Of a stretch of DNA of 64,000 bases, positions 10,544-61,157 are shown one piece after another (position 1 is the first letter of the stretch; every line of letters starts with the position of its first letter). Source of the stretch: an uncultured archaeon. GTDB lineage: Archaea; Aenigmatarchaeota; Aenigmatarchaeia; CG10238-14; SCSR01. A program made the position numbers and the translations under genes. The notes under the pieces are model-generated. The model saw only the letters and a list, made by a program, of their open reading frames with translations, did not search any database and was not told where the DNA came from. The DNA lies in contig CAYYVK010000001.1 of assembly GCA_964475145.1 (NCBI GenBank), positions 6,328-70,327 on the forward strand. Direction: 5' to 3'.

Positions 10544-11410
10544 ATGTTTAGTGAAATTCGTTTTTTAGTTGCTCTTGTAGGCTCGGTCGTTGGTGGAGCT
10601 TACGATTTGAAGACGACTGAAATTCCTGACATAATTCCGCATGCAATGATAATTTTAGCTTTATTTTTAGCTATCGTGGAATCCTTAATTCAACATAGCT
10701 ACTTACCAATATTCTATAGTTTAGTAGCTGGTCTTCCATTCTTAGCTTTTGGTTTCTTGCTATACTATTTCGGACAATGGGGAGGTGGAGATGCCAAGCT
10801 ACTAGCGGCAATAGTATTTTTGCTGCCAACAAAACCTAATTTTCTAAATTTCAATTTCTTGTTACCTTTTCCACTAACTTATCTTTTAAACGTTCTGTAC
10901 GTTGGAGCTGGATACATGATACTTTATGCGTTAGTTCTTGCTTTCATGGAGAAAAAAATACTAAGAGAGTTCTTCAAAAGAGTGGAAGCATCTGCAACCT
11001 TTTTTTCCTTAGTAGCTCTTGCTTGCTTCATCGCATTTTTTGCTACGAACTTGTACTTTACAAGTGTACTTGATTTAGAAAAAGATCTTTTTATCTTGCT
11101 GAGAAATTCTGTATTGCCACTAGTACTCTTTGTTTCTCTAATTCTTCTTTGGAAGTTTGTGAGAGTTGTTGAAGATGTTGGATTTAAAAAAAGAATTCCA
11201 GTAAGTAAGCTAAAAGTTGGTGACGTGTTGCTCGAATCTAAGAGATGGGATGGAATAACAGAAGCCGAACTTAGAAAAATAAAAAAATCTGGCAAGAAAT
11301 TTGTTACAATAAAGACTGGTGTGAGGTTTGGCCCGGTCTTTTCTTTAGCCCTTTTATTCACATTCTTTTATGGAGACGTTACATTTTTCTTAACTAGATA
11401 TTTGATTTAA
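10544..11410 (+). CDS. type IV prepilin/prearchaellin peptidase (A24 family, FlaK/PibD/EppA-like) with extra C-terminal soluble domain
   Basis: Two catalytic Asp motifs in polytopic membrane context: GGAYDLKT (Asp ~21) and WGGGDAKLLAAIVFLLP (Asp ~83). Confidence 0.7.
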   Translation: MFSEIRFLVALVGSVVGGAYDLKTTEIPDIIPHAMIILALFLAIVESLIQHSYLPIFYSLVAGLPFLAFGFLLYYFGQWGGGDAKLLAAIVFLLPTKPNFLNFNFLLPFPLTYLLNVLYVGAGYMILYALVLAFMEKKILREFFKRVEASATFFSLVALACFIAFFATNLYFTSVLDLEKDLFILLRNSVLPLVLFVSLILLWKFVRVVEDVGFKKRIPVSKLKVGDVLLESKRWDGITEAELRKIKKSGKKFVTIKTGVRFGPVFSLALLFTFFYGDVTFFLTRYLI

Positions 11411-19356: not shown

Positions 19357-19656
19357 TTGGTGGTCAAGATTCAGCTGTTGTTGACGATACTTGCACTAAT
19401 AGATATAGCTGCTGGTTCTGCTTTAGTTTTCCGTCTATCCATCTTTTCATCCTACATCGGCTATGCAATCCTTGTAAAAGGTGGGTGGACTGTTTTAAGC
19501 ACGTTCAAAAGTGACTTTCTATTTTTGCTGATAGGTGTTCTAGACTGCATTGCTGCACTGATTTTACTTTTACCTAGTGCTTTAACTTCTCTTTCCTGGC
19601 TTGTAGGAATTTTAATTATGGTAAAAGGAGCTTGGTCTTTTCTATCTTCTCTCTAA
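19357..19656 (+). CDS. small membrane protein
   Basis: 99 aa, three hydrophobic helices; between cobO and RNR. Confidence 0.3.
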   Translation: MVVKIQLLLTILALIDIAAGSALVFRLSIFSSYIGYAILVKGGWTVLSTFKSDFLFLLIGVLDCIAALILLLPSALTSLSWLVGILIMVKGAWSFLSSL

Positions 19657-22600
19657 CTTAGTTCGCATACTTCACAAACGGATATACCCTCTCCTATTGG
19701 CTTCAGAACTTCCTGTTGTCTACTGCCTTGTCTGTAAACAGTAACACCTAAACATCCAAGGTCGTATGCAAGCATAAAAGCCTTTTCCACGTCATGAGGC
19801 GTAGCATCGTGTGGAAAGTTTATCGTTTTGCTTATACCATTGTCTACGAACTCTTGGAAGGCTGCTTGAATTCTTACATGCCATTCTGGTGAAATGTCAT
19901 GAGCTGTAACGAAGATTCTTCTTATTCTCTCCGGTATTTCTTTTATGTGCTGAATGCTTGTAGAACTTAAAACTTCTTTCAAAATTTTCTCGTCGTAAAA
20001 TCCTTCTTCTATGGCAATTCTCTCAAAGTAAGGATTAACAACAATCAAGTTTGTTCCTAAACTCTCAGCCACATTTCTTATATAACCTATAGCAAAAAGT
20101 GGTTCTATGCCTTGAGAACAACCTGCTATCTCACTTATGCTTCCAGTAGGTGCTATAGTAGTTACTGTAGCATTTCTCATTGCTTCATAACCAAGCTCAT
20201 CCCATCTGCTACCTTTAAAGTTTGGAAAGCTACCTTTTTCCTTACCAAGCTCTACAGAAGTTTTCCTTGCTTCTTCTGTTATAAATTTCATCAATTCTCT
20301 TGCAGTCTTGAGAGCTTCTTCAGAATTGTAAGGAATTCTCAACAAAATTAACATGTCAGCAAATCCCATTACACCCAAACCTATTTTCCTGTTTCCCTTT
20401 GTCATTTCCTCTATCTGCTTAATCGGATACTTATTGGCATCAATAACATTGTCTAAGAAACGAACTGCTAGTTTTACTGTTTTTCTAAGCTTTTCCCAAT
20501 CTATCTCGTACTTTCCTTCTACTTCTTTAACCATCTTAGAAAGGTTTATAGAGCCTAGATTGCAAGACTCGTAAGGCAAAAGAGGTTGTTCTGAGCAAGG
20601 GTTAGTAGACTCTATTTCACCCAACTTTGGTGTTGTGTTGCAATGCCTGTTTATCCTATCTATAAAAACTACACCAGGTTCACCATTCTTCCAAGCCATT
20701 GTAACTATTAAGTTCCAGATAGCTCTTGCTTTCAAGGTTTTAACTACTGCTTTGTTTCTAGGATTGATTAGCTCAAAGTCCTTGTCATTTTTTACAGCAT
20801 CCATGAATTTGTCCGTTATTGCCACAGAAATGTTAAAGTTTCTCAAAAATCCTTCTTGCTCTTTGCAAACTATAAAGTCTAATATATCTGGATGGTCCAC
20901 TCGCAAAATTCCCATGTTGGCTCCACGACGTTTTCCCCCTTGTTTTATCTCTTCTGTTGCTGCATTGAAAACTTTCATGAAGCTTATAGGTCCTGAAGCT
21001 GTGCCAGTAGTCGATTTTACTATATCACCTTTTGGCCTTAGACGAGAAAAGCTGAATCCGGTGTTGTGAACAAACACTAGGCCGTTGACACCAGCAAGAT
21101 AATTCTGAAAATTCTCTACTGTTAAATCATAAAAGATTTTATCTTCTTTCGTTCTTGAAACCGATTTTACAACCTCTAAAGATTCTACAAGTCTCAACAA
21201 CTTTTCAAGTTGGCGTAGGTTTAAAACATTACCAACTTTTCTTAAAAACTTTACTAAAGTAGCCTTAGCAACAACACCTCTCTTATGCCACTGTCCGAGT
21301 GAAATTTTTTCACCATCAACAACAGCAATTGTCTGATTACCGTTGGTCTTGAATTCAACATCAGACCCAGATAGTAACTTTTTAAATGATTCGAAATTTA
21401 ACGGTAGTCCAAAACTTCCACCCTTATGATTTTCTAACAAAGTTTTAAGTTTCTCCCTTTTGTCGTTTCGCTGTAAGTTCATGCCTATGAGTTCATAAAA
21501 CCTTAATAGCGAAGAATATTCCTCGACTTGCAAAACATAATCAACACCATCTTTTCTTTTTTTCTTTCTCATTCTTGCCTTTATTCCTATAGAGTTTAGA
21601 AAGTATGTAATCGCTTCTATCTGTTCTTCATTAATCATGGAGAGCTCAACACTAGGTTTGGAGCTAACATGCCCTTCTGCATCAAAAAGTCCTGTAATGA
21701 AAGAAAGTGTAGCATTTTTATTTTTATATACAGTTTCTCTTAGTTTAAGGTAGTACGAGATTATTTCTTTGTTCTTTATATCAATGTAGAAAATGTTCCT
21801 ATCTTTTTGGATCGAGTATCTTCTTCTAAACTTCTTCTCCAAATGTTTATTTATTTTTTCAAGCGTTTCTTTACAGTTGTCATAAATCCTCAATCTATCT
21901 GTTTCATAGCCAGCTGCTCTATTTCTATACCTTCCGATACTACCATCACCTACTATGAAGCCAGTCGTCCAATAATCGAAGTCAAAACTGGTCTTAACTT
22001 TTGGCGGAATAGCCCCTAAAATCATATCTCCTTTTTTAATCTCATCAGCTCTTTTTTGTACAACTTCAAAATTCGGTGTCATTACAAGAAAGGGATGCCA
22101 AGCAGAAGTCAAAATCTTAGTACCTTTGTTAGTTTTTATTTCGTGTTTTTCTTCGCCATTGCTTAAAACATACTTCCAAATAAATTGGACTTTACCCCTT
22201 GCTAACTCTTTTGTTTTTGGATCAAAAGAGAAAACGAATATTTGCTTGTCTCTCACGTCAATTCCGTGTCTATTAAACTCTCCATCATAAAATTCTTTGT
22301 GCCTATTTTTCTCGTAGAACCTACTCATACTTAAAACATGAAACTCTCCATCATTTTCAAATACAAGTTTAGCTCTTCCGTCTACACATCCTCCACCTGA
22401 TTTTTGAACGATTGCCATAACTTTAAGAGCATCAAAAATACTTTCTATGCTATCTTCAACAGGTATAACAAAACATGCAGATAAGTTAAGACCATCAGGA
22501 ACTCCTGCGTTCATAAGCGTTGGTGAATTTGGCAGAAACTCTAGATTTGTCATCATCCTGTAAAACTCCTCTTCTAGGCTTTTAATGTATTCCTCGTCTT

Positions 22601-23072
22601 TTCCGTACATCCTTTCGACTTCTGCTATAGCTTTGGCAACTCTCCTGAACATTTGCCCGGTAGACTCTATTATCTTGCCGTTAACGTCTTTTCTCAGATA
22701 CCTAGCTGCCAGAATTAATAAAGCATTTGTTGGTAGCTTCAACTCGTCCTCTACACCCAACATTGCTTTTATCCTTCTTGCCTCTGCCCTTTTTTGTCTG
22801 TACAAAATATATGCTTTAGCAGTCTTGTAATGTCCATTTTCTACAAGAACTTTTTCTACAAGATCCTGAACTTGTTCAACAGTAGGAATATCTCCAGGCT
22901 TCAGTTGTTTTTCCAGCAACTCTACAACTTGTTTAGAAAGCTTTTCTGCTATTGTCCTATCCTTTCCACCTACAGCCTGGGCAGCCTTAAAAATTGCGTT
23001 AGTAATTTTTTCAGGCTCGAAGTCGACGATTCTTCCGTCTCTTTTTTTGATTTTAGAAATTGTCATCAACAT
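19653..23072 (-). CDS. nrdJ: ribonucleoside-diphosphate reductase, class II (adenosylcobalamin-dependent), intein-containing precursor (1139 aa; ~697-aa mature extein)
   Basis: N-terminal ATP-cone; thiyl-radical loop TNPCSEQ; KSGGG/TGFSFSRLRP motif split by intein; C-terminal Cys pair CEVCE. Confidence 0.9.
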   Translation of the reverse strand: MLMTISKIKKRDGRIVDFEPEKITNAIFKAAQAVGGKDRTIAEKLSKQVVELLEKQLKPGDIPTVEQVQDLVEKVLVENGHYKTAKAYILYRQKRAEARRIKAMLGVEDELKLPTNALLILAARYLRKDVNGKIIESTGQMFRRVAKAIAEVERMYGKDEEYIKSLEEEFYRMMTNLEFLPNSPTLMNAGVPDGLNLSACFVIPVEDSIESIFDALKVMAIVQKSGGGCVDGRAKLVFENDGEFHVLSMSRFYEKNRHKEFYDGEFNRHGIDVRDKQIFVFSFDPKTKELARGKVQFIWKYVLSNGEEKHEIKTNKGTKILTSAWHPFLVMTPNFEVVQKRADEIKKGDMILGAIPPKVKTSFDFDYWTTGFIVGDGSIGRYRNRAAGYETDRLRIYDNCKETLEKINKHLEKKFRRRYSIQKDRNIFYIDIKNKEIISYYLKLRETVYKNKNATLSFITGLFDAEGHVSSKPSVELSMINEEQIEAITYFLNSIGIKARMRKKKRKDGVDYVLQVEEYSSLLRFYELIGMNLQRNDKREKLKTLLENHKGGSFGLPLNFESFKKLLSGSDVEFKTNGNQTIAVVDGEKISLGQWHKRGVVAKATLVKFLRKVGNVLNLRQLEKLLRLVESLEVVKSVSRTKEDKIFYDLTVENFQNYLAGVNGLVFVHNTGFSFSRLRPKGDIVKSTTGTASGPISFMKVFNAATEEIKQGGKRRGANMGILRVDHPDILDFIVCKEQEGFLRNFNISVAITDKFMDAVKNDKDFELINPRNKAVVKTLKARAIWNLIVTMAWKNGEPGVVFIDRINRHCNTTPKLGEIESTNPCSEQPLLPYESCNLGSINLSKMVKEVEGKYEIDWEKLRKTVKLAVRFLDNVIDANKYPIKQIEEMTKGNRKIGLGVMGFADMLILLRIPYNSEEALKTARELMKFITEEARKTSVELGKEKGSFPNFKGSRWDELGYEAMRNATVTTIAPTGSISEIAGCSQGIEPLFAIGYIRNVAESLGTNLIVVNPYFERIAIEEGFYDEKILKEVLSSTSIQHIKEIPERIRRIFVTAHDISPEWHVRIQAAFQEFVDNGISKTINFPHDATPHDVEKAFMLAYDLGCLGVTVYRQGSRQQEVLKPIGEGISVCEVCELS
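21063..22388 (-). mobile_element. intein (442 aa) with LAGLIDADG homing-endonuclease domain inside nrdJ
   Basis: Starts with Cys directly after KSGGG, ends VHN before Thr of TGFSFS; block B TSAWHPF, LAGLIDADG blocks GFIVGDGSIG and GLFDAEGHV. Confidence 0.85.
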
Positions 23073-24269: not shown

Positions 24270-25760
24270 TTAAAAAGGATATCCTAAACCTAGTGTAAAC
24301 AAGTAGACGTCAAACATGTCCCTGTTTAGTGTATTCACGTAAGAGACTTCATAACCTTTCTTTACTGGTGTAATAGTAGCTTCTAAAGAGATTTTTTTAG
24401 AGGCGAAAAGGAGCAAAGAAATGAGAAGCATTCTTTCATCATCACCAACTCCACCATCAGTAAAATTGGCTATCCAAGCAGTATTGTAAGCAGGTGTACT
24501 CTTGAGTACTACTCCTGGTATTATCCCTCCGGTCTCTGTTGTATTTTCTGCTTGAATTAACACCCTATTATAATCGTTATCATCTGGAAGTATGATATAA
24601 TATCTTCCCCACCTATTTACCAGGCCAGCAGCTACAGCATGCGCAGGTGGACCCTTACCTGGCTTATTCGGATCTATCTGGTATCCAAACTCGTATCTGA
24701 TAAAATCATAAAACTTGTACTTCGGCTGAAATGTTATGCCAATTTTTCCTTCACGGATATAGCTTAAAAGAAAAGTAAAGTTTTCACTCTGATTGTGAAG
24801 GTTTGGTAACTCGAATTTCTCACCTACACCTACTTTCAAATCAGCAGTACCATTCCAATCTGTGTCGAAGTAAACACTACTAAAGTTGCAAACCCAAAAA
24901 GAATAAGCATAAGGCTCTTCTACATTTTGACTGTCTACTTGATAGACGTAAGATTGTATCTTCAAGCTCCCATTGGTTATGTTTGAACAGTAAGGAGAAG
25001 GTAAAGAACCTTCTGTTTGGATATTACCTGATGGTAGTTGACTTGTTAAAATTGGGGCAGGAATATGGTAAAAATACTTCCAAGGTTGGTAGATTATATC
25101 ACTTGCGTTGCACGGCTTTTCGTCGCATTCGTATGTGACTCTAAATTTGTCGTAATCGGAAAACCTGGAAGTCTCTGTAATTGTCGTGTTAGTTAGCCCG
25201 AATATTTGTTTTGTTCCTAGATCGAGTAAAGTAGCGTTCAAGTCAGAAATCTCAACTATTCCGTTTCCGCTGCTAAGATAAGAATTTAGCATGCTAGTAT
25301 AAGGTGTAAGGTTTCTGTAACCCCAAATTAAAAGAAGGTCAGAACCAAAGTAGCAGGGATTAACAATACCAAGATAACTCGGACAAAACTCAATTCTAAT
25401 AGGTCTATTGTTCACCTCAAGCCCATAGGTCCAGTTGTTCAAAACGCTAATTTGTTCGTCTGTGCAATTACATGCTACAACTATTCTTCCTTTTATTGTC
25501 CCTTGTGTTGTATACCAAAAGACGGTATTGTTACCTAGAACTGTCTTAGTCAGGAAATCGGAAAGTGCATTTCTGTCAAAAGAAACACTGTATAGGATGC
25601 CTATCCTATCAGCAGTAGTTATCACATCTCGTAGTTTTAGAAGTGTGTCTGCAGCATCCCATCCGGTCTCGTAATAAAAAGGTGGGAAAAATATTGTTAG
25701 TGTAACTATCAGAATTATTATGGTTGAAATTGCTTCTATAATAGATATTTGTCCGCGCAT
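24270..25760 (-). CDS. large pilin-like surface glycoprotein with class III (type IV prepilin-like) signal peptide
   Basis: MRG|QISIIEAISTIIILIVTL N-terminus; ~19 N-x-S/T sequons in 496 aa; last gene of pilus locus. Confidence 0.5.
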   Translation of the reverse strand: MRGQISIIEAISTIIILIVTLTIFFPPFYYETGWDAADTLLKLRDVITTADRIGILYSVSFDRNALSDFLTKTVLGNNTVFWYTTQGTIKGRIVVACNCTDEQISVLNNWTYGLEVNNRPIRIEFCPSYLGIVNPCYFGSDLLLIWGYRNLTPYTSMLNSYLSSGNGIVEISDLNATLLDLGTKQIFGLTNTTITETSRFSDYDKFRVTYECDEKPCNASDIIYQPWKYFYHIPAPILTSQLPSGNIQTEGSLPSPYCSNITNGSLKIQSYVYQVDSQNVEEPYAYSFWVCNFSSVYFDTDWNGTADLKVGVGEKFELPNLHNQSENFTFLLSYIREGKIGITFQPKYKFYDFIRYEFGYQIDPNKPGKGPPAHAVAAGLVNRWGRYYIILPDDNDYNRVLIQAENTTETGGIIPGVVLKSTPAYNTAWIANFTDGGVGDDERMLLISLLLFASKKISLEATITPVKKGYEVSYVNTLNRDMFDVYLFTLGLGYPF

Positions 25761-25761
25761 C

Positions 25762-26268
25762 TTACCACACTCTTACACTTATTTTTGCATAAGAGCCTGA
25801 ATCTAAGGCCGCTATTCTAGTTACTTCTGCTATATTCTGTCTGGAAATCTTGGTAGGAGGTGAACAGCTTGCTAAGAGTGTGTTAGAAATTAAGTCTGCA
25901 ATCGTGATCTCAAATTGATAATCTTGTGGTACTCCTAATTTTTCGGCGATGGAATTGTAGTCTGAAGAACATGTTTGATTAAAGGCTTGTATTTTATCGA
26001 GAGAAATTAAGTTTGTTAAATTCTTCAACTCGCTAGAAAGGCCTATTCTCTTTATTTCACCAGGACTCGTTTGGGTCCAATTGAGTGGTTCGCCAAAATC
26101 GTTTACTAAAAGCTCAGAAATCTGGTAAGCTTCTGCTTTTAGAAGCCTATTTCTTATTTCTGCTCTGTACACCGAAGTAGCAGAAATTGTTTGAAAAACT
26201 ATGTATGTGGCAAACATTACAAACAATACTAGAGAAAAATAGTATTCGGAAGATACTTGAGCCTTCAT
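25762..26268 (-). CDS. pilin-like protein (class III signal peptide MKA|QVSSEYYF...)
   Basis: short charged N-terminus then ~20-aa hydrophobic helix; stop/start abuts neighbours. Confidence 0.4.
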   Translation of the reverse strand: MKAQVSSEYYFSLVLFVMFATYIVFQTISATSVYRAEIRNRLLKAEAYQISELLVNDFGEPLNWTQTSPGEIKRIGLSSELKNLTNLISLDKIQAFNQTCSSDYNSIAEKLGVPQDYQFEITIADLISNTLLASCSPPTKISRQNIAEVTRIAALDSGSYAKISVRVW

Positions 26269-27188
26269 ACTACCAGCAACCCTACTCTTGATAAGAACAT
26301 GAATGAAACTAAAACTATCACGCTAAGGATTAAGCTATGTTTTAATCCTGCTATTACAGAATTCTCGCTTATCTGTCCTGCAACCAAGCCAGCAAAGAAT
26401 GCTTGCATAAAAGCCATGTAGAAGAAGAGGGAAACATAGTAGGAGGGTATGCCAGGCTTAACACCAAACAAACTAGTTGAAGTTAGTTCAAAAAGTGCAC
26501 ATATACTGCAAGCTCCAGCTGTACAACTCTCGCAAGGGTTTGTTAGCCCGACTACCTGTCCAAAGGTTGGAGAATAGAAAACAGGCATTAACAAATGATT
26601 GATAAGAACGATTATCACTATGAAAATTATAGTTATAGCATAGATTATTAGCAAGTGTTTATGTAATATGCTTCTCTTCTCCTTTTCTGCCTCTTGCAAG
26701 GTTATCAAGTTGTCTGCAACAGAATCTATGACAGAAACTATCTCACCTCCAGACAAATGAGCCTCTCTTATTATATTCACTGCCATATAAAGCCTTTTAC
26801 TACTTTTTACCCTTTCAGCAAACTGACCTAGAACCTTATCTACACTCATCCCCCAGCTTATTTGATTAGACATCTTCTTTACTTCCAGGCTCAGCCTACC
26901 ATAGCCTATTTTACTAGTTTGTTGTATTGCCTTGTAAAGTGGCATTCCAGAGCTTATAGCTTCTGCCAAATCGTGTAAAAAGTTTGGAAATACTGCCTCC
27001 ATTTCTTTTATGTCTCTGTACTTCTGGTACTGGTAAAGGAAATACATGAAAACTATTGCTAAAGTAGAAACTATTATCCCATTAGCTAAAACTCCCCTGT
27101 CGCCAGTTAAAACACCTATAAGAATAGCTCCTAGTAGAATTGCTCCAGAAATCCCTATCATCCTAATTTCTCTCTTAATTTTATTCAC
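26265..27188 (-). CDS. pilus-assembly platform protein, TadC/FlaJ half-size (T2SS-F domain)
   Basis: 307 aa; cytoplasmic helical domain followed by 3-4 TM helices; paired with a second such gene next to a FlaI/TadA ATPase. Confidence 0.55.
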   Translation of the reverse strand: MNKIKREIRMIGISGAILLGAILIGVLTGDRGVLANGIIVSTLAIVFMYFLYQYQKYRDIKEMEAVFPNFLHDLAEAISSGMPLYKAIQQTSKIGYGRLSLEVKKMSNQISWGMSVDKVLGQFAERVKSSKRLYMAVNIIREAHLSGGEIVSVIDSVADNLITLQEAEKEKRSILHKHLLIIYAITIIFIVIIVLINHLLMPVFYSPTFGQVVGLTNPCESCTAGACSICALFELTSTSLFGVKPGIPSYYVSLFFYMAFMQAFFAGLVAGQISENSVIAGLKHSLILSVIVLVSFMFLSRVGLLVV

Positions 27189-28041
27189 CTCCTGGTGTTG
27201 CTGCCTTTACAAGATAGAGGAAAAGAATCGAAACTGACGGTATTACCACGAAAATCATCATAAATTGGAGGGGAAGTACGTTGCCTCCTCCTATTCCAGA
27301 AATTATTGCAGTTAGGACTGTCATAAAAATAGCTGCAAGAATTATCGCAACAAGGTATATCTCCAAGTAAATCGTCAGGCTGTGAGCAAACTCGTATAAT
27401 TTTCTTCTGTATTCTACCATCATGCTATTGGACTTCTCTTTCAAGTATACATTCAAATCTCCACCTGCTCTTACGATTGAAAGGATTCCGTAAAAGATTT
27501 CACTAAGCTTTTTTGATGGTGACCTTTCAATAGCTCTTTCAAGTGCTGTGTTTACGTCTAGTCCGAACATCTCTATGTCTGTATTAATGGAGTTTATCTC
27601 AGCTGCAATTTCTTCCCTTCCAAACTTGGAAGACATCTTTAAAATTTTTGATAAAGGTAGTTTTGTACTAGCTATAGTTGAAAGATAGAGGAGGGAAAAA
27701 GGTAGTGCGCTATCTATCTTCTTCTCCCTATCTCTAATCAAAAGCTTTGGATAGTTTATGTACAAGTAAAAGAAGATTATAGAGAGGAAGACTGATGTGG
27801 TGAAACCAGTAAAAAATGCAAAAGCAAAGCTTTTAAACAATAATCCGTAGATGAAAGAAAATATAGGCAACTCGAAAAGGAAAACTATTAAGCCTGTTAG
27901 CAAAGATTTGGAAATGAACTCTTCCACAGAAATTTTAGACTTTGATTTTCTTAAATCAGATTTTAAGTCTGGAAAGTAAACTGTAAGCTTGCCCGCATAC
28001 TCGCTGAAAAGTTTGTAGGCAACCCTATCATAGAAACCCAT
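27181..28041 (-). CDS. pilus-assembly platform protein, TadB/FlaJ half-size (T2SS-F domain)
   Basis: 286 aa polytopic membrane protein; overlaps both neighbours by a few nt. Confidence 0.5.
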   Translation of the reverse strand: MGFYDRVAYKLFSEYAGKLTVYFPDLKSDLRKSKSKISVEEFISKSLLTGLIVFLFELPIFSFIYGLLFKSFAFAFFTGFTTSVFLSIIFFYLYINYPKLLIRDREKKIDSALPFSLLYLSTIASTKLPLSKILKMSSKFGREEIAAEINSINTDIEMFGLDVNTALERAIERSPSKKLSEIFYGILSIVRAGGDLNVYLKEKSNSMMVEYRRKLYEFAHSLTIYLEIYLVAIILAAIFMTVLTAIISGIGGGNVLPLQFMMIFVVIPSVSILFLYLVKAATPGGE

Positions 28042-29841
28042 CTAGCTCTCACCCATTACTACTGCCAGAACTCGAACAGGTGATGTATAATAAAGGTTTA
28101 TTACCTGGTACACACTTCTATAATCTGTTATGTTCTTTTTCTTCATCCACTCTAGAATCAAAGCCCTCCTTTGTAGCTCGTCTATCACGTCTTGCTCTGG
28201 TATACCAAACGTCTTTGAAATTTTCTTAAGAGTTAGACTCTTGCCTTGTACATCAAACTTGTCTGTGAAAGAATTCCACTTTAGCACAGTATTTACAGTG
28301 GGTCTTTGAGTCTCAAAATCAAAACCTGTTACCTCTACCACTTCACTCACTCTTCTAACAAACTTTTCTTTATACCTAGCACGAATTAGGAAAACTATCA
28401 AATCTAAGCTTGCAACGAGTGGAGGAGGTAGGGCAATAGGTTGTGTTGTTAATCTGTCAAAAAGTTTATTCATGTCTTCTGCATGTATTGTTGCAAGAGA
28501 TGGGTGACCAGTAGAGATTTGTTGGAATAGGATGTAAGCTTCTTTACCCCTAACCTCCCCAACTACTATATAATCTGGTCTTTGTCTTAGGCTTTCTCTC
28601 AGCAGGTCGAACAAGTCTACCTCTCCTCTTTCTCCCTTACTTATAGCAGTTCTTGCAACAGTAGGAACCCAGTGAGGATGTGGTAACCTTATTTCTGCAG
28701 TATCCTCTATAGAAACGATCTTCTTCTCTGGCCTGATAAAAAGAGAAAGAACGTTTAGCATAGAAGTTTTACCAGTTGCTGTACCACCAGAAATCAGAAT
28801 ACTTCTCCCATAATCTACTGCCAGCCATAAGAATGCTAAAGTCTTTGCATCGACTGTTCCATAGTTCATTAAATGAATAGGCGTTAAAGGCTCTTCTGTG
28901 AATTTTCTGATAGTAAAATTGCTTCCTTTTCTTGCTATGTCTGTGGCTAAAGTTGCTTGTAAACGCGAGCCGTCAGGGAGAGTTCCATCAACCAAAGGTT
29001 CAGCAACTGAAATAGATTTACCGCTTAACTGAGCTAACCTTATTATAAAAGAGTCTAGTTCCTCAGCAGAAGGAAAAACTACATTAGTAACTATAGAGCC
29101 AAAAGCAGGATCTCTATGATAGACAAAAATTGGCACCCCTACTCCGTCGCAAGAAATGTCCTCTATATTCGGGTCTTGCATTAATGGTTCTATTCTTCCC
29201 AAACCAACAAAATCTCTGTTTATGTAGTAATCAAGTATTTCTCTTTCCTCTGGTGTAATTTCTACCTTAAAGTATTTTAGCAATTCACTTATCTGTTGAC
29301 GGATATACTCTCTTGCTTCAGCCACTCCTAATTTAGAGAAGTCTACCTCCAGCCTCTGTTCTAGGAGCTCTCTAAGCTTATTCATCAAACTTTTTATCTT
29401 ATCACTCAAAGGCGGTTCAACTAACTGATAAACATATTTATTTGCCTTTTCGTCCCAGAAGATCCGAGCATAAGCAAAAATCTTTTCACCTTTTTTTGGA
29501 TTTCTTGGAATTAAAGGATATATGGTGACTCCTTTTTTAATTTCTACAGCTTCTTTTTTTCCTATCCCAACTTTTTTAATTTCTGTTGGAATCTCTAATC
29601 CCTCTTCTACCTTTACTTCTTTTCGAATGGCTGGTTTTTCTACTTCCTTAGGAACTTCTACACCACCTATCATTGGCCGAATCTTTAACGGTACTTCTAT
29701 CACACCTCCAGTAGACTTTATAGCTAAAGAAACTCCCAGCGGGCCTATTCCTGCTCCTTCTGCTTCAGCACTCTTAGCTTCCGTTAGGACTTTCTTCGCA
29801 CCCCTAATCATTTTTCTTGCTACTATTTTAGCTATCCTCAT
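28042..29841 (-). CDS. type IV pilus/archaellum-family secretion ATPase (FlaI/TadA/VirB11-like) with ~120-aa Lys/Glu-rich N-terminal extension
   Basis: Walker A ILISGGTATGKTS; DYIVVGEVRG Walker B/Asp box; His box TGHPSLATIHAED. Confidence 0.8.
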   Translation of the reverse strand: MRIAKIVARKMIRGAKKVLTEAKSAEAEGAGIGPLGVSLAIKSTGGVIEVPLKIRPMIGGVEVPKEVEKPAIRKEVKVEEGLEIPTEIKKVGIGKKEAVEIKKGVTIYPLIPRNPKKGEKIFAYARIFWDEKANKYVYQLVEPPLSDKIKSLMNKLRELLEQRLEVDFSKLGVAEAREYIRQQISELLKYFKVEITPEEREILDYYINRDFVGLGRIEPLMQDPNIEDISCDGVGVPIFVYHRDPAFGSIVTNVVFPSAEELDSFIIRLAQLSGKSISVAEPLVDGTLPDGSRLQATLATDIARKGSNFTIRKFTEEPLTPIHLMNYGTVDAKTLAFLWLAVDYGRSILISGGTATGKTSMLNVLSLFIRPEKKIVSIEDTAEIRLPHPHWVPTVARTAISKGERGEVDLFDLLRESLRQRPDYIVVGEVRGKEAYILFQQISTGHPSLATIHAEDMNKLFDRLTTQPIALPPPLVASLDLIVFLIRARYKEKFVRRVSEVVEVTGFDFETQRPTVNTVLKWNSFTDKFDVQGKSLTLKKISKTFGIPEQDVIDELQRRALILEWMKKKNITDYRSVYQVINLYYTSPVRVLAVVMGES

Positions 29842-30263
29842 CAGCTTACCCCTAAAATATTTTTATCTTTTTCTAATGTTAAAGTTATAGGCTTAATCGA
29901 GTAAGAAAAGCCGTTGAAAAGAAGTGTATAGTTTAAATTGTGTAAGGATGACTTATCTGCGACTCCTCCTGGTTGAGTAATTACACTAGACTGATTGTTG
30001 CTAAAACTTATCTCTGTGTAATAACCTCCTGTCATGTTCTGGAGTTTGAAAGAAAGAGCAGCATAATCACATATTTTACATTCAGCAAGAAGGTTTATAG
30101 CAATCGCTGAAACGTAGCTATTAACCAATTTTCTGTGACCAGAAGCAACGTCTTCTCTAAATAGGTCGGACTGAAGTTTAAAAAAGTATCCTAATGCTCC
30201 TAGTATGCTTATGCTTAAGACAAAGAAAATTACAAATTGTACTACGACTGTTTGAGCTTTCAT
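29841..30263 (-). CDS. pilin-like protein (MKA|QTVVVQFVIFFVL...)
   Basis: class III-like signal peptide; 140 aa. Confidence 0.4.
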   Translation of the reverse strand: MKAQTVVVQFVIFFVLSISILGALGYFFKLQSDLFREDVASGHRKLVNSYVSAIAINLLAECKICDYAALSFKLQNMTGGYYTEISFSNNQSSVITQPGGVADKSSLHNLNYTLLFNGFSYSIKPITLTLEKDKNILGVS

Positions 30264-30874
30264 CCTAAAAGAATTTTTACTTTTGTTATAGTTAAACCTT
30301 CTGGAGTTGTGGTTATTTCACCCCTAGATATACCTATTGTTTTACCAGTAGAGGTTGTGGGACCTGTTACCTCTAACTCGATCTTCTGTCTTACATTAGG
30401 GTTGCTTGGGTCTACTAGCTCTCTAAACCATATTTTGTAAGTGATGTTGTAACCGTCTCCAAAAGGATCTGCACGACCACAAGTAACGAAAGAGTTACTT
30501 CCTAGGTATGCTGAATCTGAAGGAGATACACAATTATCGCCAGCCAAGAGTGCAACCCAGTCTCCTGTTGCTGCTAGGTTAGTAGCTTTGCTAAAAAAAG
30601 TAAACTGAATACTGTTACTTGCAGTTTCAATTATCCATATGCCGTCTACGTCTAATTTAAACGTATCATACCCACCCTTGTTAGCAACGGTTGTTATCTT
30701 TCTTTGTAAGGAGTTTGGATTGTTTGGGTCAAAATATCCAGCTACTCTTTCTGTTACAGACCTGCTCTGCATTTTTTGTATTAACGGCAAACCCCATGTA
30801 TATGCCATCGCAACAAGTGTTATGGCTATTAGCACTACCAAAACAGCAGAAATGATCTCACTCACACCTTTCAT
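30260..30874 (-). CDS. type IV pilin (archaeal class III signal peptide MKG|VSEIISAVLVVLIAITLVA)
   Basis: Textbook prepilin/prearchaellin N-terminus; first pilin of locus. Confidence 0.6.
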   Translation of the reverse strand: MKGVSEIISAVLVVLIAITLVAMAYTWGLPLIQKMQSRSVTERVAGYFDPNNPNSLQRKITTVANKGGYDTFKLDVDGIWIIETASNSIQFTFFSKATNLAATGDWVALLAGDNCVSPSDSAYLGSNSFVTCGRADPFGDGYNITYKIWFRELVDPSNPNVRQKIELEVTGPTTSTGKTIGISRGEITTTPEGLTITKVKILLG

Positions 30875-30877
30875 ATT

Positions 30878-31345
30878 TTATAGTGTTGGTTTTGGTGGTA
30901 ATAAAGGTTTTTTAATAGTAATTGGTGGTCTTCTTAGTCTCTTCTCCACTTCTTCCAAAGATGCTTGCATAGCCTGGTTCGCTTCTACCATCTTCTTTGT
31001 CATTTCTATTAGCTGGTCCAGCTTTTGAGCAATAGAAGGAGTGATTCCTTCCTTAGAAGCTACTTCCTCTTCTGCCGACGCTTTTATGAAATTTATTAGT
31101 TCTTCTAACCTTGAAGTCAGATCTTCTAACCTGGAAGGAAGCTTTGAAAGCTCTATTCTCAAGGCATCGTTGGCCTTTGCTAATTCGTCTACAATTTGTT
31201 GATTCATCCTGATTATATCTACAAGCTCTTTATAAAGCTCTTTCGAGTCAAAAGCTTTGGAAGCTTCTAACTGCTCTATTCTCTTTTCCAACCTTCTTAA
31301 AGGAGAAATAGGAATTATTTCTACTTCCTCTGTACATTCTGGCAT
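30878..31345 (-). CDS. coiled-coil protein (prefoldin-like heptad repeats), function unknown
   Basis: 155 aa; long heptad-repeat helices, Pro-rich basic tail. Confidence 0.3.
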   Translation of the reverse strand: MPECTEEVEIIPISPLRRLEKRIEQLEASKAFDSKELYKELVDIIRMNQQIVDELAKANDALRIELSKLPSRLEDLTSRLEELINFIKASAEEEVASKEGITPSIAQKLDQLIEMTKKMVEANQAMQASLEEVEKRLRRPPITIKKPLLPPKPTL

Positions 31346-31383
31346 ATTTATTATTTTAAAATTAAAGTTAATAAAAGTACCAG

Positions 31384-33030
31384 TTAGTATTCTTCCTCGC
31401 CACTAGGAGTAGGTGTTGATGGCTTTTCCTTGGAAAGCTTTCCAGCAGCTATAACATCATCTATTCTCAGAATCATTTCAGCAGCTTCTGCAGCTGAAAT
31501 TATTGCTTGCCTCTTCACTTTTAGAGGTTCTACCACGCCATACTCAAACGCATCTTCTATTCTTCCCTCAAAGATGTTTATGCCATAAGTGCTTTTGCCT
31601 TGCTCGTGAGCTGCTCTAAGTTGTACAAGAATGTCTATTGGGTCTAGACCTGCATTCTCGGCTAAAGTCCTTGGAACTATTTCTAAAGCATCTGCAAAAG
31701 CTTTTATAGCCAATTGTTCTCTCCCTGAAAACTTTTCTGCAAACTCTTTTAATTGCTTAGAAACTTCAGCCTCAGGAGCCCCTGCACCTGGAAGTATCTT
31801 ACCAACTTCTACTGCTGATGCTACAGCACCTATTGCATCTTCTATACTTCTATCAACTTCATCAACAACATGCTCCGTGCTTCCCCTTACTAGAATAGTC
31901 ACTGCCTTAGGATCTTTGCAACCTGTTACAAAAGTTACTTCTTCTCCACCTATTTTCTTCTCTTCTACCAGCTTGGCATAACCTAAGTCTTCTTTTGTCA
32001 AATCTTCTAAGTTTGAAACTATTCTTCCACCTGTTGCTCTTGCTAAAGCCTCCATGTCAGACTGTTTCACTCTTCTGCAAGCAAGAATGCCTTTTTTAGC
32101 TAGGTAGTGCTGAGCAACGTCGTCTATACCTTTCTGACAGAATACCACGTTAGCGCCTGTTGCAGCAACCTTTTCCACCATTTCTTTTAGCATCTTCTGT
32201 TCTTGCTCTAAAAATGCTTGCATCTGTTCTGGAGATGTAATTCTTATTTGTGCGTCTGTCTCAGGCTCTTTTACTTCAAGCGCAACATCCAATAAAGCTA
32301 TCTTTGCATCTTTTATTGTTTTAGGCATTCCTGGATGCACTACCTCCTTATCTATAGCAATTCCCCTTATTAGCTCTGTTTCTTCAGAAGAAGCACCATG
32401 TTTCTTCAATCTTTTTATGTTGTCTGTATCTACGACAATTTTTCCATCTTTTTTCTCTGCTACACTTCTTACTGCTTCAACAACCAGAGAAGCTAACTTT
32501 GGAGATGCCTTTTCCACAGACTTTCCAGACATGGCAGTAATCGCTATCTTTTTCAAGTCTTCTGTATCTTCTAGTGTAACCGGCCTTGCAATTTTCTCTA
32601 GAATCTTTAAAGCCTCTTCTTTAGCAATCTTAAAACCTTTTGTTATGACAGTTGGATGAACTTCTTGATCTAAAAGTTGCTCAGCATTTTTCAAAAGCTC
32701 GCCTGCTAAAATAACGGAAGTAGTGGTACCGTCGCCTGTCTCCTCGTTCTGTGTCTTTGCTACTTCAACCATCATCTTAGCAGCTGGGTGCTCTATCTCC
32801 ATTTCTTCTAGAATAGTCACACCATCGTTGGTAATAACTATATCACCTATACTGTCTACAAGCATTTTGTCCATTCCCTTAGGTCCTAGAGTAGTTTTCA
32901 CAGCCTCAGCAACTGCCTTAGCAGCTGCTATGTTATTGCGTTGAGCATCCTTACCTGTAGTTCTTAACGTACCTTCTGGCAATATCAAAACCGGCTGTCC
33001 TCCTAATTGACCTATCATTGCCTGAGCCAT
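31384..33030 (-). CDS. ths: thermosome subunit (group II chaperonin)
   Basis: 548 aa; [25 protein letters not shown] motifs; acidic GEEEY tail. Confidence 0.9.
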
Positions 33031-34313: not shown

Positions 34314-34410
34314 GGGCGAGTAGCTTAGCCTGGTGGAGCACAAGTGCTTAATCGCCTTATAAGGCAGCTAAGCTAGCGAGGGGTCGAGGGTTCAAATCCC
34401 TCCTCGCCCA
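34314..34410 (+). tRNA. tRNA (97 nt) with one or more non-canonical insertions/introns; isotype unresolved
   Basis: Perfect acceptor GGGCGAG/CTCGCCC, T-arm GAGGG-TTCAAAT-CCCTC, D-arm GCTT-AGCCTGGTG-GAGC, discriminator A. Anticodon region holds perfect helix GCTTA/TAAGC enclosing 18 nt with nested hairpin GCCT-TATA-AGGC; about 23 nt exceed a 74-nt tRNA. Confidence 0.7.
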
Positions 34411-34442
34411 CTTTTATAGATATTTAAAAGGAATTTTATCTT

Positions 34443-57646: not shown

Positions 57647-57748
57647 TGGGGTCGACGGGATTCGAACCCGCACACCGAGGTTTCCTCATCAAATCAGAGC
57701 TCCATTCAGCTGGAGCCTCGTGTCACTACCAGGTTAGACGACGACCCC
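57647..57748 (-). tRNA. tRNA-Trp (CCA) with 28-nt intron at canonical 37/38 position
   Basis: GGGGTCG-TC-GTCT-AACCTGGTAG-TGAC-A-CGAGG-CTCCAG[CTGAATGGAGCTCTGATTTGATGAGGAA]A-CCTCG-GTGT-GCGGG-TTCGAAT-CCCGT-CGACCCC-A; intron UGGAG pairs with anticodon loop. Confidence 0.8.
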
Positions 57749-59866: not shown

Positions 59867-60249
59867 GCGACGTAGGCAAGATGCTGGCACAAGTTATTTA
59901 TGTAACAGTAGCAATAGCTGCAATGATAATTTTTGTCCTTCTAGTTCAGCAGAGAAAGGTTGAGGAATGTAGTCAAGTAATCTACGGCAATGCCCTGGAA
60001 GCCTTGGGTAAACTGAGAGTCTGTGTGAACAACTGTTGGTCTAAGCATGACTTTGGAAGGAGTAGCATGAACGAAGACTGTTACGTAGTAAAATTTATTT
60101 CTTCTGGAAGCATAGACAAGGATACTGCTGAAAAAATTCTTAGCAACCCAGCAAAAGTATCTTTTCTTGTTGATGTGCAACCAAACGTAGAAACTATTTT
60201 GCGAGTTAGGTACAATTCTACTGGAATCGTACAGATAATTCCTTATTAA
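59863..60249 (+). CDS. pilin-like protein (N-terminal hydrophobic helix)
   Basis: 128 aa; MSDVGKMLAQVIYVTVAIAAMIIFVLL. Confidence 0.3.
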   Translation: MSDVGKMLAQVIYVTVAIAAMIIFVLLVQQRKVEECSQVIYGNALEALGKLRVCVNNCWSKHDFGRSSMNEDCYVVKFISSGSIDKDTAEKILSNPAKVSFLVDVQPNVETILRVRYNSTGIVQIIPY

Positions 60250-60269
60250 TTGCTTACTTAAATATTTTT

Positions 60270-60764
60270 ATGAAGGGTATTGCAATTTCTACTGTAGCTC
60301 TGTTTATAATTGCTGTTTTTGTTGTCGTAATGCTTATAATTTTCATAGGGTCGAACTTTTCCCCTGCTTTGAGGAGTGCATACTGCTCTTTGCTAATAGG
60401 GTTGAGAGGTTTCCTTCCTTTGCCAGAAAGCTTAAAGCCTGGATTGCCTACTTACTGCAAGGAAGACGTATATCCACAGACTTATTACATAGAATCCGAC
60501 CAGCCTGACAAGATAGCTTATGAGGTTGCTTCTTACATTCTGGCATGCTGGGAGGTTACTGGAAGAGTAGACTTGAAAGCGAACAGGACATGCTCAGAAG
60601 TTGTTATAAAGCGTATACAGGGAGTTGTAGACAAGAGTTTAGTTATGAGTAAACTACCTGAAAATTATCGAAACATATTTGATTGGAAAGCTGATATCAT
60701 CGATAGACCAAAATCTTTAGGTATACTGTACGAATACCCAAGCAAGAAGGTGGTGGTTGTATGA
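60270..60764 (+). CDS. pilin-like protein, class III signal peptide MKG|IAISTVALFIIAVF
   Basis: 164 aa. Confidence 0.45.
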   Translation: MKGIAISTVALFIIAVFVVVMLIIFIGSNFSPALRSAYCSLLIGLRGFLPLPESLKPGLPTYCKEDVYPQTYYIESDQPDKIAYEVASYILACWEVTGRVDLKANRTCSEVVIKRIQGVVDKSLVMSKLPENYRNIFDWKADIIDRPKSLGILYEYPSKKVVVV

Positions 60765-61156: not shown

Positions 61157-61157
61157 G

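Follow-up and report, generated by a model that had tools for sequence, protein, structure and literature searches.

Type IV pilus systems of archaea and the organization of the locus

The type IV pili (T4P) of the euryarchaeal "clade 2" of Makarova et al. (2016) are represented by those of H. volcanii, with PilB3-C3 and its PilA pilins and the PilB4 locus, and by the A. fulgidus GspE (PDB 2OAP). The loci of this clade often contain two tadC-like genes and a minor pilin of 250-550 aa (PMC4858521). A census by Sivabalasarma & Albers in 2026 assigned a single platform gene to system 2 and placed the DPANN loci with two platform genes in systems 1 and 4A, the former being reported in some DPANN (10.64898/2026.04.22.720090). 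System 1, or "clade 1," is exemplified by the Epd locus of M. maripaludis, which comprises 11 genes, with a dedicated peptidase (EppA/EpdA), a major pilin without a globular head, and an ATPase of a kind described as very divergent outliers. In archaeal T4P loci, DUF2341 proteins have been proposed as tip adhesins (PMC4858521). T4P loci with unrecognisable pilins were reported earlier in DPANN archaea (PMC6393860).

We analyzed a window of 64,000 nucleotides from an Aenigmatarchaeota genome, in which a co-directional and tightly packed block of genes occupies positions 24270-31345 on the minus strand, as the first-pass annotation had described. Nine genes were claimed there, but we count eight, because the accompanying list comprised eight items and the intergenic gaps (+1, -4, -8, 0, -1, -4, and +3 nt, the last one separating the coiled-coil and pilin genes) fit no ninth gene. 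The genes encode, in order, a coiled-coil protein, a pilin of 204 aa, a protein of 140 aa, a secretion ATPase, the N- and C-terminal halves of a platform protein, and two proteins of 168 and 496 aa, and the same set was obtained in an independent JGI gene call on the identical public contig. At least eight Aenigmatarchaeota genomes share the gene order, which is identical in the loci L001, L002/4, L005, L006, L007, L009, and L073 and differs slightly in L016, with the ATPase identity across loci ranging from 86% down to 48%. The module of the ATPase and the split platform reaches Woesearchaeota, Nanoarchaeota, and Thermoplasmatota. Given the domain E-values (see below) and a gene order that is kept as a whole in different genomes, the arrangement cannot be due to chance. 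Thus, the eight genes are a conserved operon, presumably co-transcribed. Altogether, we regard it as probable that this operon serves one non-archaellum T4P of an Aenigmatarchaeota (DPANN) archaeon.

The neighbors of the operon are housekeeping genes (thermosome, L15e, S2, and RNR). An AT-rich spacer of 38 nt (31346..31383, minus strand; CTTTTATTAACTTTAATTTTAAAATAATAAAT), read directly, lies between the stop codon of the thermosome gene and the first operon gene and possibly contains an archaeal TATA-type promoter, from which a leaderless or short-leadered transcript would start. Scans for bacterial-type promoters and terminators, which are inapplicable to archaea, gave no excess over shuffled sequences.

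The ATPase and the split platform

The GspE/FlaI-family ATPase (28042..29841, minus strand; 599 aa) matched T2SSE with an E-value of 1.1e-34, bearing out its earlier identification as a secretion ATPase. The P-loop (GGTATGKTS) was read directly from the sequence, and both Walker B (DYIVVGEVR at residue 423) and the His box at residue 445 are intact. Its N-terminus begins with a short basic stretch, continued by a variable linker rich in K and E (approximately residues 21-100). The C-terminus resembles PilB3_C, although with 23.3 bits it stays below the cut-off of 27; many close homologs also have such a C-terminus. The N-terminal extension noticed in the first-pass annotation is real, running ~82-120 residues past the start of the alignments with A. 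fulgidus GspE and FlaI and containing 35 K or E among the first 125 residues of the protein, but it is not unusual, since the combination of a short basic segment and a variable charged linker occurs at the N-terminus of nearly all relatives.

The best solved relative of the ATPase is A. fulgidus GspE (399 bits over residues 122-591), followed by S. acidocaldarius FlaI (275 bits) and CpaF/TadA (163 bits). By sequence, the ATPase thus appears closest to A. fulgidus GspE and the PilB3-type enzymes. We regard it as a mainstream enzyme, because of the 399 bits to 2OAP and the 42% identity to the Thermoplasmatota homologs, and in this respect it differs from the divergent ATPases of clade 1. Note that the placement in "clade 2" or "system 2" is indirect, via 2OAP and PilB3_C, and that the single platform gene of system 2 in the 2026 census speaks against it.

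Two platform genes follow the ATPase gene directly, as the platform gene or genes do in clade 2. The first one (27181..28041, minus strand; 286 aa), which adjoins the ATPase gene in 65 loci, encodes a T2SSF domain (E-value of 2.1e-11) flanked by hydrophobic segments and aligns to positions 10-248 of 555 in an ArlJ model. The second one (26265..27188, minus strand; T2SSF E-value of 4.1e-14) aligns to positions 198-443 of 465 in an ArlJ model and corresponds to the second half of a profile including fused platforms of 482 aa; its start is ambiguous, as translation from the GTG at 27188 would give 307 aa and from the ATG at 27161, which JGI chose, 298 aa. Judging from the matches to the ArlJ models and the fused 482-aa platform of Nitrosopumilus, the two genes encode the N- and C-terminal halves of a FlaJ/PilC-type protein. 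Split platforms are frequent throughout this ATPase clade (see also PMC4858521).

The first-pass annotation compared this layout to bacterial Tad and methanococcal Epd pili, and the comparison holds for the gene layout but not for the ATPase sequence, which is nearer to A. fulgidus GspE and FlaI than to CpaF/TadA. With Tad/Flp systems the locus shares one ATPase, two separate T2SS-F platform genes, the lack of a retraction ATPase, and an adhesive role, if the latter is assigned correctly here. On the other hand, the ATPase reached 184 of the 373 bits required by the TadA model, and no short Flp pilin, secretin, or TadZ/TadG-like gene of the Tad type was found at the locus in the Pfam and NCBIfam searches. 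The likeness to Epd extends to several class III minor pilins besides the single ATPase and the two half-size platform genes, and the ortholog in L001 (see below) matches the large proteins of the DUF2341 type, for which a role as tip adhesins was proposed (PMC4858521). Nevertheless, the sole A24 peptidase seen here is encoded 13 kb away, and the 204-aa pilin has a globular head.

Automated pipelines usually label such genes FlaI and FlaJ. Accordingly named relatives in JGI ("flagellar protein FlaI" and "flagellin-like protein") would fit a reduced archaellum, or the remnant of one, giving motility, and so would the best NCBIfam match of the ATPase (the FlaI model), the best matches of the platform halves (ArlJ models), and the finding that most Aenigmarchaeota MAGs encode FlaG, FlaI, and FlaJ, listed as a "subset of archaellum proteins" (PMC8407114). 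Homologous ATPase and platform proteins, class III substrates, and an A24 peptidase are indeed common to both machines. However, the scores fall below the cut-offs (415 against 550 bits for FlaI; 74 against 550 for ArlJ), the ATPase is nearer to the non-archaellum GspE of A. fulgidus than to S. acidocaldarius FlaI, and the platform is encoded by two genes in place of the single ArlJ gene. Furthermore, none of the eight proteins matched the archaellin, ArlF/G, ArlH/KaiC, or ArlCDE/X families, whereas seven core components occur in every archaellum studied (PMC4858521). We therefore consider the archaellum reading highly improbable.

The pilin-like proteins, the coiled-coil protein, and the peptidase

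Four proteins carry class III-type N-termini exactly as first quoted (MKG|VSEII, MKA|QT, MKA|QV, and MRG|QISIIE), each with K/R at -2, G/A at -1, and a hydrophobic segment of at least 20 residues. The first-pass annotation had held that platform genes lacking T2SS-F homology and pilin candidates outside class III would speak against a pilus locus; both platform halves scored above the Pfam gathering score, and the N-termini are of the class III type. It also found no named family for the pilin set, in agreement with our searches of Pfam and NCBIfam, in which nothing reached a curated cut-off and the 140-aa protein was left without any family. Only a minority of the members of the pilin families showed weak N-terminal matches to TIGR02537, UpsA, DUF7289, and DUF7287.

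The 204-aa pilin (MKG|VSEIISAV...; 30260..30874, minus strand) was modeled as a typical pilin with one helix of 46 residues and a beta domain (pLDDT 92), and possesses one nearly invariant sequon (N143-I-T). Its gene is kept immediately upstream of the ATPase gene even in Woesearchaeota-type loci. This protein is most likely the major pilin, although the 140-aa protein (MKA|QTVVVQF...; 29841..30263, minus strand) could take that part instead. The latter, with its hydrophobic segment at residues 1-30, belongs to a family conserved at the same position in eight distinct loci, with K2, Q9, F10, F13, and F14 invariant and CxxC in most relatives, and is a candidate minor pilin. Another candidate minor pilin is the 168-aa protein (MKA|QVSSEYYF...; 25762..26268, minus strand), of which the N-terminus is of the Q-x-S-x-E type. 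In the family alignment, Q4 is invariant and MK[GA]|Q.S.E[YF] is conserved, and 4 of the 14 members weakly matched DUF7287. The ortholog in the closest relative (L001) is 491 aa long with a DUF2341 insertion, suggesting that relatives can bear an adhesin domain at this position.

The weak match of the 204-aa pilin family to UpsA might point to a pilus for DNA or nutrient uptake, or for cell-to-cell exchange (Ups/competence-like), rather than for plain adhesion. The retention of the operon in genomes of ~0.75-0.8 Mb and its position among the housekeeping genes would suit such a role; DPANN cells must import most of their building blocks. Nevertheless, the match is confined to the signal peptide and helix region and scores 19 bits, with the cut-off at 130. 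The Pfam and NCBIfam searches turned up neither DNA-processing nor ComEC-like or nuclease genes at the locus, archaea lack a PilT-type retraction ATPase (PMC4858521), and the swappable LamG/DUF2341-type modules described below point to binding and not transport. We find the uptake reading quite improbable.

The coiled-coil protein (30878..31345, minus strand; 155 aa), encoded by the first gene of the operon, appears to be cytoplasmic, with neither a transmembrane nor any other hydrophobic segment, and gave generic coiled-coil matches only in the Pfam and NCBIfam searches. The protein starts with a conserved motif near its N-terminus (E-x-E-[IL]-I-P-x-S-P-[IL]-R-[RK]-[LM]-E-K-R) and ends in a Pro/Lys-rich tail, and its gene stands first in the operon at 13 distinct Aenigmatarchaeota loci, some of them distant. 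We presume that the protein is an accessory or scaffold subunit.

The prepilin (class III signal) peptidase that was thought to complete the apparatus is encoded ~13 kb from the operon (10544..11410, plus strand; 288 aa). It matched Peptidase_A24 above the gathering score (E-value of 7.1e-10), and both catalytic Asp motifs are present in the translation (...AYD21L... and GGGD83AKL). This peptidase presumably processes all four pilin-like proteins.

The 496-aa protein and the proposed machine

The last gene of the operon (24270..25760, minus strand) encodes the 496-aa protein (MRG|QISIIE...). After a short hydrophobic helix and a small helical bundle, the protein was confidently predicted to fold into a GATase1/ThuA-like alpha/beta domain plus a beta-rich module in the middle (approximately residues 236-343), which is absent from relatives of ~350 aa and replaced in those of 500-840 aa, in one case by Laminin_G_3+DUF2341. 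The protein thus looks like a scaffold bearing a swappable outer module. Instead of the ~19 sequons reported previously, we counted 15 N-x-S/T, approximately three times the expectation (4.65 +/- 1.9 in shuffles; 0 of 500 reached 15), and the family median is 10.5, making the protein a candidate glycoprotein. Cys pairs covary in this family. Together with the module swapping and DUF2341 in the 168-aa ortholog, the sequon excess and the Cys covariation suggest a surface role for the last two genes. CofB/TcpB of type IVb pili and GspK of the T2SS, the largest pilin-like proteins of their own operons, likewise combine a class III N-terminus with additional domains foreign to pilins; they presumably act in the priming of assembly and at the tip of the filament, and can be taken as functional analogues. 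We propose the 496-aa protein as a candidate tip or host-contact subunit, perhaps a tip adhesin.

In contrast to classical pilins with a long alpha-1 helix, the hydrophobic helix of the 496-aa protein is short (22 residues, 3-24) and stops at a nearly invariant F-P kink, so the protein may lie outside the filament or could remain at the base of the apparatus. The latter would agree with a short pseudopilus or surface-display assembly (bindosome- or T2SS-like) holding the large glycoprotein and class III proteins, in which the base-anchored protein is likened to FlaF binding the S-layer. The break after the helix, the large non-pilin alpha/beta domain, and the resemblance of the ATPase to the bindosome BasE and of the platform to BasF favor this idea, and archaeal TFF machines displaying class III binding proteins have been proposed to be widespread (10.64898/2026.04.22.720090). 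However, the resemblance is far below the cut-offs (191 against 1000 bits for BasE; 21 against 1300 for BasF), no substrate-binding protein was found at the locus in the Pfam and NCBIfam searches, and the 204-aa protein has both the full-length alpha-1 helix of a polymerising pilin and a retained position next to the ATPase gene. A display assembly is therefore rather unlikely.

Altogether, we read the operon from its sequences as putatively encoding an adhesive T4P of the euryarchaeal "clade 2" kind, neither an archaellum nor a Tad system, with an adhesive or host-contact role. Besides the ATPase type with its extended N-terminus and the adjoining platform genes, it shares with clade 2 the several class III pilins, one large minor pilin (250-550 aa), and the lack of archaellum accessory genes. 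In contrast, the pilins here are not PilA-like, the large protein is alpha/beta and GATase1-like while the arCOG02911 protein has been described as all-beta and Ig-like, and the operon begins with a conserved gene for a cytoplasmic coiled-coil protein. The assembly motor is ordinary, and the system is of a known kind, in a lineage-specific variant.

In this pilus, the A24 peptidase would cut the three-residue leaders (MKG/MKA/MRG) off the four pilin-like proteins, and the hexameric ATPase would dock on a platform in which the two half-size T2SS-F proteins act as one FlaJ/PilC. ATP hydrolysis would then raise pilins from the membrane into a filament, the core of which would be packed N-terminal helices, with the 204-aa pilin most likely as the main subunit, while the 140-, 168-, and 496-aa proteins would be present in low abundance and serve in priming or at the tip. 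Presumably N-glycosylated to a high degree, the 496-aa protein would show its replaceable module on the GATase1-like scaffold and contact a surface or a host cell. The coiled-coil protein may scaffold or regulate the ATPase via the extended N-terminus of the latter. The same genomes hold a second, paralogous ATPase/platform module, which adjoins canonical MKGISPxVAxVLLIAIT pilins.

The predicted pilus operon and its assembly machinery

The pilus operon comprises eight ORFs on the minus strand at 24270-31345, not the nine genes counted in the first-pass annotation. In the transcription order, they encode a coiled-coil protein of 155 aa without a hydrophobic segment (gene 1, 30878-31345), a 204-aa protein starting with MKG/VSEIISAV (gene 2, 30260-30874; the slash follows position -1 here and below), a 140-aa protein starting with MKA/QTVVVQF (gene 3, 29841-30263), an ATPase of 599 aa (gene 4, 28042-29841), two membrane proteins of 286 and 307 aa (gene 5, 27181-28041, and gene 6, 26265-27188, respectively), a 168-aa protein starting with MKA/QVSSEYYF (gene 7, 25762-26268), and a 496-aa protein starting with MRG/QISIIEAI (gene 8, 24270-25760). 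The junctions between consecutive genes are +3, -4, -1, 0, -8, -4, and +1 nt. A gene call made independently by JGI, on a public contig whose ATPase is identical, gave the same eight genes and differs solely in placing the start of the 307-aa gene at a downstream ATG (298 aa).

Directly upstream of the operon and on the same strand lies a thermosome gene (31384-33030, minus strand), separated by an AT-rich spacer of 38 nt. This adjacency is kept in relatives down to 65% ATPase identity (L001, L002, and L075; L numbers designate the loci around the ATPase homologs fetched from other genomes), and the thermosome gene and the operon are possibly co-transcribed. A scan for bacterial-type promoters and terminators, which is of a type that does not apply to archaea, yielded no excess over shuffled sequences. 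On its downstream side, the operon is followed on the same strand by genes encoding L15e and S2 of the ribosome and a ribonucleotide reductase that contains an intein. In the large subunit of this reductase (19653-23072, minus strand, 1139 aa), the intein bears a LAGLIDADG endonuclease and splits the protein, as it also does in L001; intein domains also occur in P0073 (1019 aa), one distant homolog of the ATPase.

The ATPase matched Pfam T2SSE above the gathering score (E 1.1e-34) with the P-loop (GGTATGKTS), Walker B motif (DYIVVGEVR), and His box intact. Its C-terminus matched PilB3_C with 23.3 bits, under the cut-off of 27, and PilB3_C is on record for many of its close homologs. The first ~100 residues are K/E-rich and lie beyond the region common to A. 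fulgidus GspE and FlaI. This N-terminal extension, noticed in the first-pass annotation, is thus present and K/E-rich as described, but it is not unusual, being a trait of the family. Across 108 homologs, conservation is moderate over residues 1-20, poor over the linker of variable length at residues 21-100, and resumes near residue 100. A short stretch of basic residues at the very N-terminus was found in the Aenigmatarchaeota orthologs, their paralogs (L-R-G-x-L-Y-R-K), and Woesearchaeota homologs. Subsystem-specific N-terminal extensions are a general feature of the archaeal TFF ATPases in a recent census (10.64898/2026.04.22.720090). No second ATPase or platform was detected within the window by tblastn.

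The HMM search proposed earlier for the two platform genes upheld their T2SS-F homology, as both scored above the Pfam T2SSF gathering score (53.1 and 44.3 bits vs 25.2). The 286-aa protein aligns to the N-terminal half and the 307-aa protein to the C-terminal half of ArlJ models, and the latter also matches the second half of a profile that includes the fused 482-aa platforms of Nitrosopumilus. Taken together, the two proteins correspond to one FlaJ/PilC. The predicted peptidase at 10.5 kb was confirmed as a Peptidase_A24 protein (10544-11410; E 7.1e-10) with both catalytic Asp motifs, AYD21 and GGGD83. Judged from the sequences, the four parts that define a machine of the type IV filament kind, namely the ATPase, platform, class III pilin-like proteins, and A24 peptidase, are all present and intact, in agreement with the claim that the operon and the peptidase form a complete apparatus.

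The coiled-coil protein bears no membrane segment and received generic coiled-coil matches alone. Within Aenigmatarchaeota, no other non-core gene of the operon is kept as widely as the one encoding this protein, in which an N-terminal motif and a Pro/Lys-rich tail are conserved. The basic segment of the ATPase is present with or without the coiled-coil gene, giving no support for a specific pairing of the two. One halobacterial subtype of T4P has a coiled-coil protein in the cytoplasm as an accessory component (PMC4858521). Our guess is that the protein encoded here might be a scaffold or regulator at the ATPase.

Comparison with known type IV filament systems

The best NCBIfam score of the ATPase was for archaellum FlaI (NF058587), at 415 bits under the cut-off of 550. 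The nearest solved structure is the non-archaellum GspE of A. fulgidus (2OAP; 399 bits over residues 122-591), which scores above S. acidocaldarius FlaI (275 bits) and CpaF (163 bits). The platform is split, and none of the eight operon proteins matched ArlH (KaiC-like), ArlF, ArlG, or archaellin. We thus reject the archaellum, from which the locus had already been set apart in the first reading. The ATPase is far under the NCBIfam cut-offs for BasE, TadA, VirB11, and GspE. The bindosome label fails on the curated cut-off for the ATPase and on the signature genes, which are missing.

The suggested resemblance to bacterial Tad pili is borne out by two platform halves next to one ATPase but not by the ATPase itself, as the TadA score is under its cut-off (TIGR03819, 184 bits vs 373) and the match to CpaF is weaker than that to A. 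fulgidus GspE (163 vs 399 bits). There is also no Flp-like protein in the operon, and the bacterial Tad/Flp system was rejected. The resemblance to the Epd pilus (system 1, clade 1) likewise stands in part. The two platform genes adjoin the ATPase as in the Epd pilus, but the eight-gene operon lacks its own dedicated peptidase, and the candidate major pilin of 204 aa carries a globular head and is not headless and Flp-like. The ATPase evidence (2OAP and PilB3_C), drawn from solved structures and Pfam families, would point away from clade 1 albeit indirectly.

Clade 2 pili combine ATPases of the PilB3/GspE type with several pilins and a single large minor pilin, two tadC-like genes are frequent, and nanoarchaeal representatives are included in this clade (PMC4858521). 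With regard to clade 2 (system 2), the operon ATPase has an N-terminal extension, and its match to PilB3_C stays below the cut-off. The operon pilins do not share the PilA-type N-terminus of clade 2 pilins, which was found instead beside a paralogous module (see below), and the 496-aa protein is alpha/beta, unlike the all-beta arCOG02911 minor pilin of clade 2. The best fit for the operon would be the euryarchaeal "clade 2" kind of pilus of Makarova et al. (2016), and this assignment is indirect. In the 2026 census, the two-platform loci of DPANN archaea fall into systems 1 and 4A, and the platforms of system 2 are single genes (10.64898/2026.04.22.720090).

The pilin-like proteins

All four pilin-like proteins have K or R at position -2 and G or A at position -1, followed by a hydrophobic stretch, and the class III-type N-termini claimed for them are therefore present throughout. 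The class III-like pattern occurs in 6 of the 162 ORFs of at least 60 aa in the window, three of which are in the operon and three in a cluster near 60 kb; the scan missed the 168-aa protein, which is slightly under the hydrophobicity threshold used. As claimed, the proteins belong to no named pilin family, none of the four reaching any curated family threshold. The candidate major pilins (the 204-aa and 140-aa proteins) are 137-201 aa when mature. The 204-aa protein was modelled as a helix (residues 2-47) with a beta domain as the globular head. The 140-aa family is restricted to closer relatives and bears CxxC in most members. The 168-aa family has a mature N-terminus of the Q-x-S-x-E type, and its member in L001 carries a DUF2341 insertion of ~320 aa.

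By word search, the family of the 496-aa protein comprises 89 relatives; a profile search gave 477 clusters for it when clustered at 50% identity. All of its named members are from Aenigmatarchaeota, and no Pfam domain was found in any member. In a confident AF2 model (pLDDT 88.5, pTM 0.87), a hydrophobic helix of 22 residues ends at F25-P26, a pair that hardly varies in the family, and is accompanied by a small bundle of helices, a domain of the beta-alpha-beta type, and an extended region rich in beta strands. We counted 15 sequons (N-x-S/T) in the protein, fewer than the ~19 given earlier but in excess of the 4.65 +/- 1.9 in shuffled sequences, none of 500 shuffles attaining this number; across the family, the median is 10.5. 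Three Cys pairs, 126/136, 212/217, and 258/291, covary, being gained or lost jointly across the family. The sequon excess and the covarying Cys pairs are consistent with an extracellular glycoprotein. We do not propose a GATase1 enzyme role for the protein, as its conserved Cys residues are off the position of the nucleophile elbow and its top structural neighbours are not catalytic.

A conserved frame (residues 1-235 and 343-496) surrounds a middle module (~236-343). The module is missing in the family members of ~345-365 aa and is replaced by inserts of 150-360 aa in others, one of which consists of Laminin_G_3 and DUF2341. Such module swapping would be expected of a part contacting a variable partner. 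The protein, suggested as a tip adhesin in the first reading, may sit either at the tip or at the base. Separately, C97-N98-C99 of the protein (24270-25760, minus strand) does not vary among 70 family members, 68 of which also conserve N98-C-T as a sequon. This motif may represent a disulfide of the CxC type, a site for metal binding, or a sequon with obligatory glycosylation.

Conservation, possible role, and other features of the window

Relatives of the ATPase number in the thousands, and the closest of those with a name come from Aenigmatarchaeota MAGs. Among the matches in species-representative genomes, its identity is 52-66% to the Aenigmatarchaeota orthologs, 43-48% to Woesearchaeota and Nanoarchaeota, about 42% to Thermoplasmatota and MG-III, and about 34% to Nitrosopumilus. 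The full eight-gene order is kept in L001 (86% ATPase identity; contig of 757 kb), L002/L004 (791 kb), L005, L006, L007, L009, and L073, while L016 keeps it except for the 140-aa gene. Distant Aenigmatarchaeota loci are shorter, with the coiled-coil gene, a short pilin, the ATPase, two platform genes, and a 168-like gene. The combination of the ATPase with two half-platform genes recurs across DPANN and Thermoplasmatota, and we thus regard the split platform as old in this ATPase clade; the platform of Nitrosopumilus is fused. The same Aenigmatarchaeota genomes possess a paralogous module of an ATPase and two platform genes (43-46% identity; L035, L051, L038, and L033), flanked by canonical PilA-like pilins (MKGISPxVAxVLLIAIT). 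These genomes therefore have two distinct pilus systems, of which that in the window is the non-PilA one.

The current view of DPANN archaea is of cells that live attached to a host. To our knowledge, almost nothing is known about how Aenigmatarchaeota locate and hold their hosts. We infer an adhesive or host-contact role of the pilus because motility genes are absent from the locus, the distal proteins are modular and predicted to be glycosylated, DUF2341 is present in close relatives, and DPANN archaea are regarded as host-dependent (PMC8407114, PMC6393860). DUF2341 has been proposed as a tip-adhesin domain (PMC4858521). A more far-reaching reading, which we consider rather doubtful, is that the 496-aa protein is the founding member of a family of host-recognition proteins carried on the pilus and specific to Aenigmatarchaeota, with a class III-anchored, heavily glycosylated GATase1/GIFT-like scaffold and an exchangeable cassette (a beta module, LamG plus DUF2341, or none). 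Together with the DUF2341-capable small pilin, it would set the hosts open to attachment by a given DPANN lineage. The operon would then determine the host range of these episymbionts, and the coiled-coil protein would count as a new subunit associated with the motor.

T4P loci with unrecognisable pilins have been noted in DPANN archaea (PMC6393860), and papers on Aenigmarchaeota gave these genes as partial archaellum sets (PMC8407114). We found no published description of the eight-gene architecture with the leading coiled-coil gene, of the predicted GATase1-like fold of the 496-aa protein, or of its cassette-like middle module. Altogether, the locus is a lineage-specific version of a known machine type, the assembly machinery itself adding nothing new to type IV pilus biology, and its main worth is as a lead to DPANN host recognition. 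The operon is retained gene for gene in genomes of ~0.8 Mb. Its genes are usually mislabelled as an archaellum; reading them as an adhesive pilus shifts the expectation from swimming to attachment and names two candidates for host contact. One is the 496-aa scaffold with the module that relatives swap, and the other is the 168-aa pilin, which has DUF2341 in a close relative.

A second co-directional cluster (57791-62440, plus strand) encodes a 691-aa polytopic membrane protein followed by five small Cys-rich proteins, three of which have class III-like N-termini (MKG/IAIS, MKG/FMVLE, and MPKG/ISALE). One protein of the cluster gave a weak Flp1_like match. The 691-aa protein (57791-59866) was considered as a diverged platform and rejected, having no Pfam match and no significant match to either platform-half profile. 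No ATPase lies near the cluster within the window, and a search for the cluster beside a paralogous ATPase of other genomes found no homologs in any of the 74 fetched ATPase loci. Immediately 3' of the cluster, a Cys-rich ORF (about 62911-64000, plus strand) with a Sec-type signal-like N-terminus, MLKRMFLVFPVFMLLLISVVKAG, is truncated by the end of the window.

A 685-aa membrane protein (37965-40022, plus strand) matches PTPS_related (PF10131, E 1.3e-32) as its family. This possible membrane glycosyltransferase-like protein could be relevant to the heavy N-glycosylation predicted for the pilus proteins. Two tRNA matches are over-long (97-102 nt), at 34314-34411 (plus strand) and 57647-57748 (minus strand). 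ARAGORN gave no anticodon for the former and missed the latter, and both are probably intron-containing archaeal tRNAs.
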